From Escherichia phage FL12, in sequence record PP400786: a stretch of 64,000 bases of DNA, one strand, 5' to 3'. The notes below the pieces were generated by a model. The model was given only the letters and a program-made list of their open reading frames with translations. It ran no database searches and had not been told where the DNA came from. The translations under genes were made by a program, and so were the position numbers. Below, in pieces: positions 39,462 through 43,221 of the stretch (its first letter is position 1; each line of letters begins with the position of its first letter).

Positions 39462-39530
39462 GTTATCGAGTTGGTGCCATTATATACATCATTTTCTGAT
39501 TGTGTTTTGTGTGCTTTCAAAATGAAGAAA

Positions 39531-39545
39531 GGGGCCGAAGCCCCC
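39531..39545 (-). terminator. Terminator after hoc
   Basis: On the minus-strand RNA, GGGGC-UUCG-GCCCC followed by a U-rich tract. Confidence 0.7.
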
Positions 39546-39550
39546 TATGA

Positions 39551-40969
39551 TTATGGATAGGTATAGATGATACCAGTTTCTAAAGCAGTTTTATGAATGA
39601 TGTATCCATTACGTGATTCTTGAACATCAACTTCTGGATAGTCTTTCATCATCTTCTGAAGAGTGTAACGATGCAGGTAATATTTACTATCTGGATCGTC
39701 AGTTTTCCAATCTTTACCTTCTTCAGTCATTTTTTGGATTTCATCCATAACCCACCAACCGCACCAGATGTAAGCTGAAGTACGATGTGGAAGAGGATGA
39801 ACATAAGGTAATTCACCTTCTGGTTCTGGAGCAACTTTATCAGTTACCTGAACTTGACCTTCTGCTGTGATAGTTTTGCTATCATAATCAGTAGCAGTAA
39901 CAGTTGCAGTAACTTCAATAGTTTGACTTCCAATAGATGATGTATCAACGGTGTATACATTAGTTGACCCTTCTACAGGAGAAGAATCTTTCTTCCATGA
40001 ATACGCAATTTGTGCTTCTTCTGGAGCATCAGTAACATTAGCAGTAAATGTAGCCGAAGCATCTTGCTGGACGTTAATAGAAGGAGGAGTCAATGTAACC
40101 TGTGGATTCATTGTCTTCTTATTAACTGTCAATGATACTTCATTAGAAGTAACTTCCTTTTCATTGTAATTTTCTGCCGTTACTTGCGCTACGCATTTAA
40201 TTCTTTTTACTCCACTTGTAGTTGGAGTGTAATTGAACGTAGCATTAGTTTCTCCACCAACTTGTGAATCATCTACATACCATTTATATGTAGCAGACGC
40301 TCCAACAGGTTGAGAAACCAAGGCAGCAGTAAATTGAACTGGGGTTCCAATTACTCCAGCTGAAGGACTATCAGGAGTTACGGCTAATGTAGTTGTCTGC
40401 GTCTTTTTATTAACAGTCAGTGACACTTCATTGGAAGTAACTTCCTTTGTATCATAATCTGTCGCGGTTACTTGAGCTACACACTTAATTGTTTTAACTC
40501 CGCTTGTGTCAGGAGTGTAATTGAATGTAGCGTCAGTTGCTTCGCTTACAGGAGAACCGTCAACGTGCCATTGATACGTAGCAGATGCACCTGGCGGCTG
40601 TGAATCTAAGGCAGCGGTAAATTGAACGGCTGTTCCAATCACTCCAGCCGCAGGACTAGCAGGAGTTACAGCTAAGGTAGTCGTTTGTGTCTTATTTTGA
40701 ACTGTGATAGTTGTTGTCGCTTCAGCCGTTTCCGGGCCTCCTTCAGAAAGTGTATTTGTTGCAACAACTTTAATTGTTTTTGTTCCAGCAGGTCCTTTTA
40801 ATACATAATCAAAAGTTGCCGCTGATCCTTCTTGTGGAGCATTATCTACACTCCAAGCATAGGTAATAGTTCCACCTCCAGTTTGACCACTGGGTGCAGC
40901 AGTAAACTGCTGAGTCTGATCTATAACTCCAGTAGGTGTTTTAGGAGTTATATCAACTGTAAAAGTCAT
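39551..40969 (-). CDS. hoc: Highly immunogenic outer capsid protein, four Ig-like domains plus capsid-binding C-terminus
   Basis: 472 aa; N-terminus MTFTVDITPKTPTGVID; conserved C-terminal module ending GIIYTYP; two adjacent near-identical ~95-aa Ig-like units. Confidence 0.92.
   Translation of the reverse strand: MTFTVDITPKTPTGVIDQTQQFTAAPSGQTGGGTITYAWSVDNAPQEGSAATFDYVLKGPAGTKTIKVVATNTLSEGGPETAEATTTITVQNKTQTTTLAVTPASPAAGVIGTAVQFTAALDSQPPGASATYQWHVDGSPVSEATDATFNYTPDTSGVKTIKCVAQVTATDYDTKEVTSNEVSLTVNKKTQTTTLAVTPDSPSAGVIGTPVQFTAALVSQPVGASATYKWYVDDSQVGGETNATFNYTPTTSGVKRIKCVAQVTAENYNEKEVTSNEVSLTVNKKTMNPQVTLTPPSINVQQDASATFTANVTDAPEEAQIAYSWKKDSSPVEGSTNVYTVDTSSIGSQTIEVTATVTATDYDSKTITAEGQVQVTDKVAPEPEGELPYVHPLPHRTSAYIWCGWWVMDEIQKMTEEGKDWKTDDPDSKYYLHRYTLQKMMKDYPEVDVQESRNGYIIHKTALETGIIYTYP
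40124..40696 (-). repeat. Tandem in-frame duplication of a ~288-bp Ig-domain unit within hoc
   Basis: Protein units NKTQTTTLAVTPASPAAGVIGTAVQFTAAL... and NKKTQTTTLAVTPDSPSAGVIGTPVQFTAAL... align residue for residue; DNA at about 40140-40240 and 40428-40530 is visibly similar at a 288-nt offset. Confidence 0.85.
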
Positions 40970-40978
40970 AAGTTATCC

Positions 40979-41659
40979 TTATTTTAATGTTACGAAAGAA
41001 GAATTGCGTGTTTCACGAATTAGAACTGATCCGTCACGATTAATGTAGTAAATTAAACTAAACAAAGTTTGATGCGCAGACGCATGTTCAAAACTGGTTG
41101 GGCGAGATTTCCAATCTGGAGTTTCAGCTATCCATTGATAAATCCACCAAGGAACAGTGCAGAATCCTGGATTTTTTCCAATCAGCTGAAGATTTGGACT
41201 AAAGTTTTCCGGAAGAGTAAATACAGACGGCTTTTCAGATTCAATAATCTCAGCTACAGCCTGTTCGAATTTTTCTTCAACAAAAGGAGTATCTTCAATC
41301 AAAACTGAGGTATTTTCAGGAATTTTATCCGTTTCTACTACTTCAATTTTAATGTCAGATTTAACCGGAGAATCAATCAGAAGTGCTGCTTCTGGATTGA
41401 CTTCTTCATCGTCATATTTTAATCCCTCTGCAGCATCAGCAGCATCAATTAAGTCTTTAATAGATAACCCATCAGTCTCTGGCATAGGTTCACTAGCGAG
41501 CTTCTGGAGGGCTTCTTCAATATCAACAACGATATTATCAAAAGATTTATTCTTTTTGACCTTTATACCAAACTGTTCAGCATATTCAGCTAATTTAGCT
41601 TTAGCTTCTTTGTTATCATCAAGAGCCTTCAGCTCTGCAATATAATCTTTATCTATCAT
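40979..41659 (-). CDS. inh: Inhibitor of prohead protease
   Basis: 226 aa; position between hoc and uvsW. Confidence 0.8.
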   Translation of the reverse strand: MIDKDYIAELKALDDNKEAKAKLAEYAEQFGIKVKKNKSFDNIVVDIEEALQKLASEPMPETDGLSIKDLIDAADAAEGLKYDDEEVNPEAALLIDSPVKSDIKIEVVETDKIPENTSVLIEDTPFVEEKFEQAVAEIIESEKPSVFTLPENFSPNLQLIGKNPGFCTVPWWIYQWIAETPDWKSRPTSFEHASAHQTLFSLIYYINRDGSVLIRETRNSSFVTLK

Positions 41660-41709
41660 AATATTTCCTCAGTATAAATATAGATATATTTATTACATGG
41701 TATTTAGAC

Positions 41710-43221
41710 ATGACTGACATTAAAGTACATTTTTATGATTTTAGTCACGTGAGAATTGATTGTGAAGAAAGTACATTTCATGAACTCCGTGATTTCTTTA
41801 GCTTTGAAGCTGACGGGTATCGTTTTAATCCTCGCTTCAGATATGGCCACTGGGATGGACGAATTCGTCTTTTAGATTATAATCGTCTTCTTCCATTCGG
41901 CTTAGTCGGGCAAATTAAAAAGTTCTGTGATAACTTTGGCTATAAAGCCTGGATTGACCCACAAATTAACGAAAAAGAAGAATTATCAAGAAAAGATTTT
42001 GATGAATGGCTTTCTAAATTAGAAATCTATTCAGGAAATAAAAGAATTGAACCACACTGGTATCAAAAAGATGCAGTGTTCGAAGGATTAGTTAATCGTC
42101 GTAGAATTCTTAATCTTCCAACATCCGCTGGTAAATCTTTAATTCAAGCTTTGCTTGCGCGGTATTATTTGGAAAATTATGAAGGTAAAATTCTTATCAT
42201 TGTTCCAACAACTGCTCTGACAACTCAGATGGCTGATGACTTTGTTGACTATCGTTTATTCAGTCATGCAATGATAAAGAAAATTGGTGGCGGAGCATCA
42301 AAAGATGATAAATATAAAAATGATGCACCAGTCGTTGTTGGTACATGGCAAACTGTAGTTAAACAACCGAAAGAATGGTTCTCACAGTTTGGAATGATGA
42401 TGAATGATGAATGCCATCTTGCTACAGGAAAAAGTATTTCATCTATCATATCAGGTTTAAATAACTGCATGTTTAAATTTGGTCTATCAGGTTCATTACG
42501 TGATGGCAAAGCCAATATCATGCAGTATGTTGGAATGTTTGGTGAAATATTTAAACCAGTAACGACTTCTAAATTAATGGAAGATGGACAAGTAACTGAG
42601 TTAAAAATTAATAGTATTTTTCTTCGCTATCCCGATGAGTTCACTACTAAATTAAAGGGAAAAACTTACCAAGAAGAAATAAAAATTATTACTGGGCTCA
42701 GTAAAAGAAATAAATGGATCGCTAAATTAGCTATTAAGCTTGCGCAAAAAGATGAAAACGCTTTTGTCATGTTTAAACATGTATCACATGGTAAAGCTAT
42801 TTTCGATTTAATTAAAAATGAATACGATAAAGTTTATTACGTATCAGGGGAAGTTGATACCGAAACCCGCAATATAATGAAAACCTTAGCTGAAAATGGT
42901 AAAGGAATAATTATAGTAGCGAGTTATGGCGTATTTTCTACTGGTATTTCAGTTAAAAATCTGCATCACGTTGTTTTAGCGCACGGTGTTAAATCAAAAA
43001 TCATTGTATTACAAACAATCGGTCGTGTATTACGTAAGCATGGTTCTAAGACAATAGCAACAGTCTGGGACCTCATAGATGACGCAGGCGTCAAGCCAAA
43101 ATCTGCTAATACGAAAAAGAAATATGTTCATTTGAACTATCTTTTAAAACACGGCATTGATCGTATTCAGCGCTACGCAGATGAAAAATTTAATTACGTA
43201 ATGAAAACAGTTAATTTATAA
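41710..43221 (+). CDS. uvsW: UvsW RNA-DNA / DNA helicase
   Basis: 503 aa; Walker A LPTSAGKS and DECH box (MMNDECHLA); SF2 helicase motifs. Confidence 0.95.
   Translation: MTDIKVHFYDFSHVRIDCEESTFHELRDFFSFEADGYRFNPRFRYGHWDGRIRLLDYNRLLPFGLVGQIKKFCDNFGYKAWIDPQINEKEELSRKDFDEWLSKLEIYSGNKRIEPHWYQKDAVFEGLVNRRRILNLPTSAGKSLIQALLARYYLENYEGKILIIVPTTALTTQMADDFVDYRLFSHAMIKKIGGGASKDDKYKNDAPVVVGTWQTVVKQPKEWFSQFGMMMNDECHLATGKSISSIISGLNNCMFKFGLSGSLRDGKANIMQYVGMFGEIFKPVTTSKLMEDGQVTELKINSIFLRYPDEFTTKLKGKTYQEEIKIITGLSKRNKWIAKLAIKLAQKDENAFVMFKHVSHGKAIFDLIKNEYDKVYYVSGEVDTETRNIMKTLAENGKGIIIVASYGVFSTGISVKNLHHVVLAHGVKSKIIVLQTIGRVLRKHGSKTIATVWDLIDDAGVKPKSANTKKKYVHLNYLLKHGIDRIQRYADEKFNYVMKTVNL

Follow-up and report, generated by a model that had tools for sequence, protein, structure and literature searches.

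Why does the hoc gene of Escherichia phage FL12 carry the same Ig-like domain twice in tandem, and is the doubling a recent and unstable change in this phage or an old feature shared with its relatives? In phage T4, the highly immunogenic outer capsid protein (Hoc) binds with its C-terminal domain at hexamer centres and forms a fibre ~180 Å long, and the number of Ig-like domains in Hoc homologues ranges from one to ten (PMC10385173). We analysed a stretch of 64,000 nt from FL12 (sequence record PP400786), hereafter referred to as the window, in which hoc is encoded on the minus strand. As argued below, the gene very probably belongs to a common Tequatrovirus hoc allele class, in which Ig-like domain 2 (D2) occurs twice in tandem, as the old and diverged units A and B in this order.

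The hoc locus

The 472-aa hoc gene given in the initial annotation was confirmed by its open reading frame and by the match of its product to T4 Hoc (PDB 5vf3_Z, 376 aa; phmmer, E = 9.8e-230). Coordinates of the gene, its domains and its surroundings are listed in Table 1. The gene order is the Tequatrovirus-conserved rnlB - 24.2 - 24.3 - hoc - inh - uvsW: an rnlB-like gene, 24.2 and 24.3 are located downstream of hoc, and inh directly upstream, followed by uvsW. Annotations of relatives name these neighbours gp24.2, inhibitor of prohead protease and uvsW, and those of Ge15 and wV7 place hoc at the corresponding position. A 24-kb region (window 28000-52000) is ~97.5% identical to several Tequatrovirus genomes. 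Within this region hoc is a local hotspot of divergence, with 91.5% identity to BCH953P4 versus 97.5% over the 24 kb.

Table 1. Features of the hoc locus in the window (positions of the window; aa, residues of FL12 Hoc).
Feature	Position	Strand	Remarks
hoc, highly immunogenic outer capsid protein	39551..40969	minus	ORF of 472 aa plus stop, frame intact
Ig-like domain 1 (D1)	40691..40969	minus	aa 1-93; aligns to T4 Hoc 1-93; all-beta, pLDDT ~87-94 (AF2)
Repeat unit A, first copy of Ig-like domain 2, A-type	40403..40690	minus	aa 94-189
Repeat unit B, second copy of Ig-like domain 2, B-type	40115..40402	minus	aa 190-285; closest to the single domain 2 of T4
Ig-like domain 3 (D3)	39842..40114	minus	aa 286-376; aligns to T4 Hoc 190-280; all-beta, high pLDDT
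C-terminal capsid-binding domain	39554..39841	minus	aa 377-472; near-identical to T4 Hoc 281-376, few substitutions
Terminator-like GC hairpin with T run	39529..39546	minus	5 nt downstream of the hoc stop codon
inh	40979-41659	minus	
uvsW	41710-43221	plus	

The start of hoc lies 9 nt past the stop codon of inh, and hoc may be co-transcribed with inh. The T4 late-promoter motif (TATAAATA) is absent from the minus strand upstream of hoc (40970-41700), and none is found just upstream of inh. Terminators are annotated in phages G29 and fPS-90 at the place equivalent to that of the hairpin in Table 1. Elsewhere, a late-promoter-like TATAAATA is present on the plus strand at 41673-41680, 30 nt upstream of the uvsW start codon, and the motif is enriched across the window (23 matches vs 8.6 expected). 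The genes inh and uvsW are divergent, with the uvsW start 51 nt from the inh start codon, and the homing-endonuclease gene segE is absent from the stretch between them (41660-41709). In the record of T4 strain 147, segE is located beyond hoc, flanked by the end of the locus examined and by a stretch lacking annotation in which inh would be expected. An antisense ORF of 72 aa with a GTG start was found inside hoc (39951-40169, plus strand), which is most likely a chance ORF.

Domain architecture and comparison with T4 Hoc

T4 Hoc (PDB 5vf3, 8t1x and others) shares family and locus (24.3 - hoc - inh) with the window gene, and its length of 376 aa, given in the initial annotation, is correct (PDB 5vf3_Z; the CDS of T4 strain 147 has 1131 nt). 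The proteins align in two stretches, residues 1-134 of the query with T4 1-134 and residues 198-472 with T4 102-376. Therefore, the surplus 96 aa represent a second copy of T4 Ig-like domain 2, which bears out the claim that FL12 Hoc has one Ig-like domain more than T4 Hoc. T4 domain 2 shows 87% nucleotide identity to unit B of the window, and relative to T4 an additional A-type unit of 96 aa is placed between D1 and the T4-like domain 2. The window protein is organized as D1 - D2A - D2B - D3 - capsid-binding domain and has four Ig-like domains in 472 aa, whereas T4 Hoc has three in 376 aa and thus neither this architecture nor this length. T4 residues 281-376, the counterpart of the last domain in Table 1, constitute the defined capsid-binding domain (PMC10385173).

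In Pfam searches with the window protein, PKD scored above its cut-off, and matches to Ig_2, Ig_3 and I-set remained below theirs; Ig_3 and I-set matches were located at aa 289-373, in domain 3. AlphaFold2 (AF2), run on a shallow alignment of 30 sequences that all have at least 83% identity, predicted four consecutive all-beta domains with a pLDDT of ~85-95 up to ~aa 376 and a low-confidence C-terminal domain. A Foldseek comparison with the PDB matched four-Ig fragments of Dscam, ICAM D1-D4 and RB49 Hoc (3shs).

Divergence of the two repeat units

Tandem Repeats Finder detected the array at 40113-40693 (period 288, 2.0 copies, 78% matches, score 717), a second repeat search paired 40113-40400 with 40401-40688 at 77% identity, and self-comparison of the Hoc protein revealed 96 aa as the one strong offset. 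The repeat far exceeds chance expectation. Units A and B are in exact phase without indels, and 223 of 288 bases (77%) and 77 of 96 residues (80%) are identical. The 65 base differences, 41 of which are at third codon positions, lead to 34 synonymous and 19 non-synonymous codon differences (dS ~1.1, dN ~0.12, Nei-Gojobori), and the longest identical run in register is 15 nt. The initial annotation had described two near-identical units of ~95 aa at a 288-nt spacing; period and coordinates are upheld, and the near-identity is not, given these identities and the dS of ~1.1. Since the copies are not near-identical, the duplication is not recent. A and B are old copies under purifying selection.

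The amino-acid differences between A and B are concentrated in predicted loops (15 of 19, Fisher p = 0.002), a placement in the structural model that may reflect a conserved framework with diversified surfaces. In addition, a common linker is found at three domain junctions, ending in ...TVQNKT at D1/A and in ...TVNKKT at A/B and B/D3.

Occurrence and copy number in Tequatrovirus

The exact 472-aa protein is deposited in GenBank for Escherichia phage FL12 (XAO16585.1) and falls into a 68-member cluster at 90% identity (NCBI, ENA and Logan assemblies), together with the proteins of teqsoen, fPS-90, Kelasse and vB_Eco_Some. The 472-aa Hoc proteins of FL12, Ge15, teqsoen, fPS-90, Kelasse and vB_Eco_Some are identical to the window protein in architecture and differ by allelic mosaicism only. 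The closest match to the gene is Ge15, with 96.6% nucleotide identity. The two-unit Hoc of wV7 (HM997020) has 474 aa and again the same architecture.

Altogether 658 phage records match hoc. Allele frequencies were estimated from 52 Tequatrovirus records sampled systematically, evenly spaced along the match ranking. Among these full-length records, 22 of 52 span ~1419-1425 nt in one piece, and in 30 of 52 the match amounts to ~1131 nt in two pieces; one of the 22 two-unit records spans 1474 nt in two pieces. Roughly 40% of the sampled hoc genes are thus two-unit genes and ~60% are T4-like, and the unusualness implied in the initial annotation is not supported. The megablast figure of 598 records covering at least 80% of the query was rejected for counting alleles; it is inflated, because the single domain 2 of T4-type genes aligns to both units and the pieces are joined to 100% coverage.

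Beyond these two classes, longer forms exist, and proteins with 1, 2, 3 and 4 D2-type units have 376, 472, 568/570 and 664 aa, respectively. UGKSEcP1 and UGKSEcP2 encode a Hoc of 568/570 aa with three D2-type units of 96 aa, and vB_EcoM_FJ1 a Hoc of 664 aa with four, all in the same phase as in the window. The hoc CDS of FJ1 (L022, MZ170040, 1501-3495) comprises 1995 nt, codes for six Ig-like domains, is annotated as a hypothetical protein and gives the longest Tequatrovirus Hoc among those examined. At 1474 nt, the hoc of vB_EcoM_G29 (L026, MK327940, 301-1774) exceeds the two-unit gene by ~55 nt; its annotation consists of two overlapping CDSs, each named 'PKD domain protein', and a frameshift, a partial re-duplication or a sequencing error may lie behind this.

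The window hoc therefore represents an ordinary and already deposited allele class of a decoration gene known to be hypervariable, and a variable number of Ig-like domains in Hoc has been published before. The literature searched gave no explicit account of a four-Ig Tequatrovirus Hoc or of a copy-number polymorphism within the genus, and the statement found was a general one (PMC10385173).

Two lineages of domain 2 units

Comparison of individual units at the DNA level was based on a small sample, as a scan of IMG/VR yielded four close relatives only. Units cluster by position and not by phage. The first units of the window, L001, Ge15, BCH953P4 and wV7 and unit 1 of FJ1 are 83-100% identical to each other in nucleotide sequence, versus 74-81% to second units, and the second units of two-unit genes are 88-98% identical to each other. 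Unit A of the window has the same nucleotide sequence as that of Ge15 (100%), against 83-92% identity to first units elsewhere. At 29 nucleotide sites, first (A) and last (B) units show fixed differences. In the window, all 29 are of the A state in unit 1 and all 29 of the B state in unit 2, and the same holds for L001, Ge15, BCH953P4 and wV7. The dS between A and B (~1.1) far exceeds that of orthologous D1 or D3 plus C-terminal segments (0.10-0.37), and therefore the A/B split predates the divergence of these genomes. Likewise, since the units form two lineages conserved by position across phages, the doubling predates these genomes.

Single-unit genes are of either type: those of T4 and L002 are B-type, that of L004 is A-type and that of L003 is a mosaic. 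Most of 82 single-unit protein representatives have an A-type core and ~11 a B-type core, with mixed patterns. The inner units of three- and four-unit genes, including FJ1, are A/B mosaics. Mosaicism also extends beyond domain 2: in the comparison of Ge15 with the window, unit A is 100% and D1 91% identical. The window hoc is a recombination mosaic.

Discussion

The number of D2 units ranges from 1 (T4) to 4 across the genus, with the A-B order kept in many phages. Recombination, both unequal and homologous, among the units and among phages infecting the same cell would be the simplest source of the mosaic alleles. Such exchange may be aided by the conserved framework and by the linker common to the junctions (...TV(Q/K)NKT / ...TVNKKT), which is a plausible site for in-phase unequal recombination. 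Expansion and contraction, predicted for the locus in the initial annotation, is supported in this sense across the population, where alleles with 1-4 units exist. It finds little footing within the genome of the window, in which units of 77% identity with identical runs of at most 15 nt are a poor substrate.

The direction of change can be approached through the single-unit genes. Deletion by unequal crossover in an A-B gene predicts one switch from a 5' A part to a 3' B part. In nucleotide sequence, T4, L002 and L004 agree with this prediction and L003 does not, and at the protein level the 82 representatives are mixed, so that the single-unit patterns are mosaic, without one clean switch. 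T4 has the A state at site 42 and L004 the B state at site 276. An A-like 5' edge in T4 together with a B-like 3' edge in L004 leads us to lean, very tentatively, towards deletion from an A-B gene. Conversely, the two-unit gene could have been formed by unequal recombination at the shared linker between divergent single-unit alleles of A- and B-type, which would make the T4 form ancestral. Single-unit genes of A-type (L004) and B-type (T4, L002) both exist, microhomology of the linker is available at the D1/D2 and D2/D3 junctions, and hoc is mosaic, as seen for Ge15 and the window. However, a 5' A-like or a 3' B-like edge is frequent in single-unit genes, as expected from deletion in an A-B gene, and we regard such a fusion of alleles as possible, if somewhat improbable. 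An old and widespread A-B allele is the outcome of both the duplication and the fusion of alleles.

A further-reaching proposal is that D2-unit number and A/B type are actively selected and recurrently reshuffled, tuning fibre length as well as glycan avidity or specificity to the animal-gut niche, and that the three-Ig form of T4 was derived by deletion from a multi-unit ancestor. We consider this a speculative and rather unlikely extension.

It is highly improbable that the tandem duplication arose recently in situ, is specific to the phage of the window and is unstable. Its exact head-to-tail phase of 288 nt without indels would be in line with such an origin, as would the alleles of differing copy number in relatives. 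However, a divergence of a few per cent at most would be expected, and the units are 77% identical in nucleotide sequence, with 65 of 288 nt different, a dS of ~1.1 and no identical run longer than 15 nt. Moreover, unit A matches its Ge15 counterpart at 100%, yet its own neighbour at 77%, and ~40% of the sampled relatives, as well as wV7, have the same architecture. That assembly falsely expanded a single domain-2 repeat is scarcely credible: apart from the hazard inherent to tandem repeats in short-read assemblies, nothing speaks for the collapse or expansion feared in the initial annotation, and against it stand copies diverged enough for any read to tell them apart, an intact reading frame, the identical deposited FL12 protein in its 68-member cluster, and a 1419-nt hoc in dozens of independent genomes.

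For the product of the old A-B allele, function can be extrapolated from related proteins. Hoc mediates adherence to MUC2/fucose, with critical residues that vary by phage; in PNJ-9 Hoc, S183, L184 and T185 in domain 2 are critical (PMC11853027). The motif NEVSLT is found at the end of both units of the window protein, at aa 180-185 in A and aa 276-281 in B. As in T4, each gp23 hexamer would bear a single Hoc at its centre, anchored by the C-terminal domain, and from the near-identity of the anchor domain we infer one monomer per hexamer centre and a protein that is dispensable for infectivity. The string of Ig-like domains pointing outward would form a fibre one domain longer, a gain that we estimate from the typical size of an Ig domain at ~4 nm over the ~18 nm of T4. 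The extra module, with surface loops unlike those of its neighbour, could serve in weak adhesion to mucin glycans or cell surfaces. The likely role is thus that of an extended fibre whose additional module adheres weakly to mucus or cell surfaces, and the suggestion that it alters adhesion or antigenicity is reasonable. The literature searched contained no measurement of binding, antigenicity or fibre length for a 472-aa Hoc.

Variation in the string of Ig-like domains is not confined to Tequatrovirus. RB49 Hoc (3shs), the Hoc of Serratia phage Muldoon with 10 Ig-like domains and PNJ-9 Hoc, which is without domain 3 (PMC11853027), combine a conserved C-terminal anchor with a variable Ig-like string as in the window (PMC10385173, PMC11853027); they belong to other genera and their sequences are distant from the window Hoc. 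In another genus of the Tevenvirinae, L006 (IMGVR_UViG_2974546015_000001, 1501-2907; ~48% identity) encodes a Hoc of 471 aa with an internal duplication that starts at aa 186; the copies are offset by 94 aa, and their aa identity is 81%. Because a different region of hoc is duplicated, this event is independent of that in the window, and domain duplication in hoc is therefore recurrent. The Hoc of L005 contains an older internal duplication with 52% identity, and forms of ~280 aa and ~550 aa occur among L011, L017 and L013.

The value of the finding as a discovery is limited: databases already include the sequence, many phages share the architecture, and variation in Ig-domain number has been published. 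Its significance lies with T4 Hoc as the reference in phage display, in work on mucus adherence and in phage-therapy pharmacokinetics, as in about four of ten sequenced T4-like coliphages Hoc is one Ig domain longer, and in a few it is two or three Ig domains longer than that of T4. It is mainly in surface loops that the extra unit departs from its neighbour, and it brings a second copy of NEVSLT, of which S-L-T is reported to be critical for MUC2 binding in a related phage. The genus of T4 has at least four copy-number states of Hoc, made up of two old types of unit, and the textbook T4 architecture is one of them.
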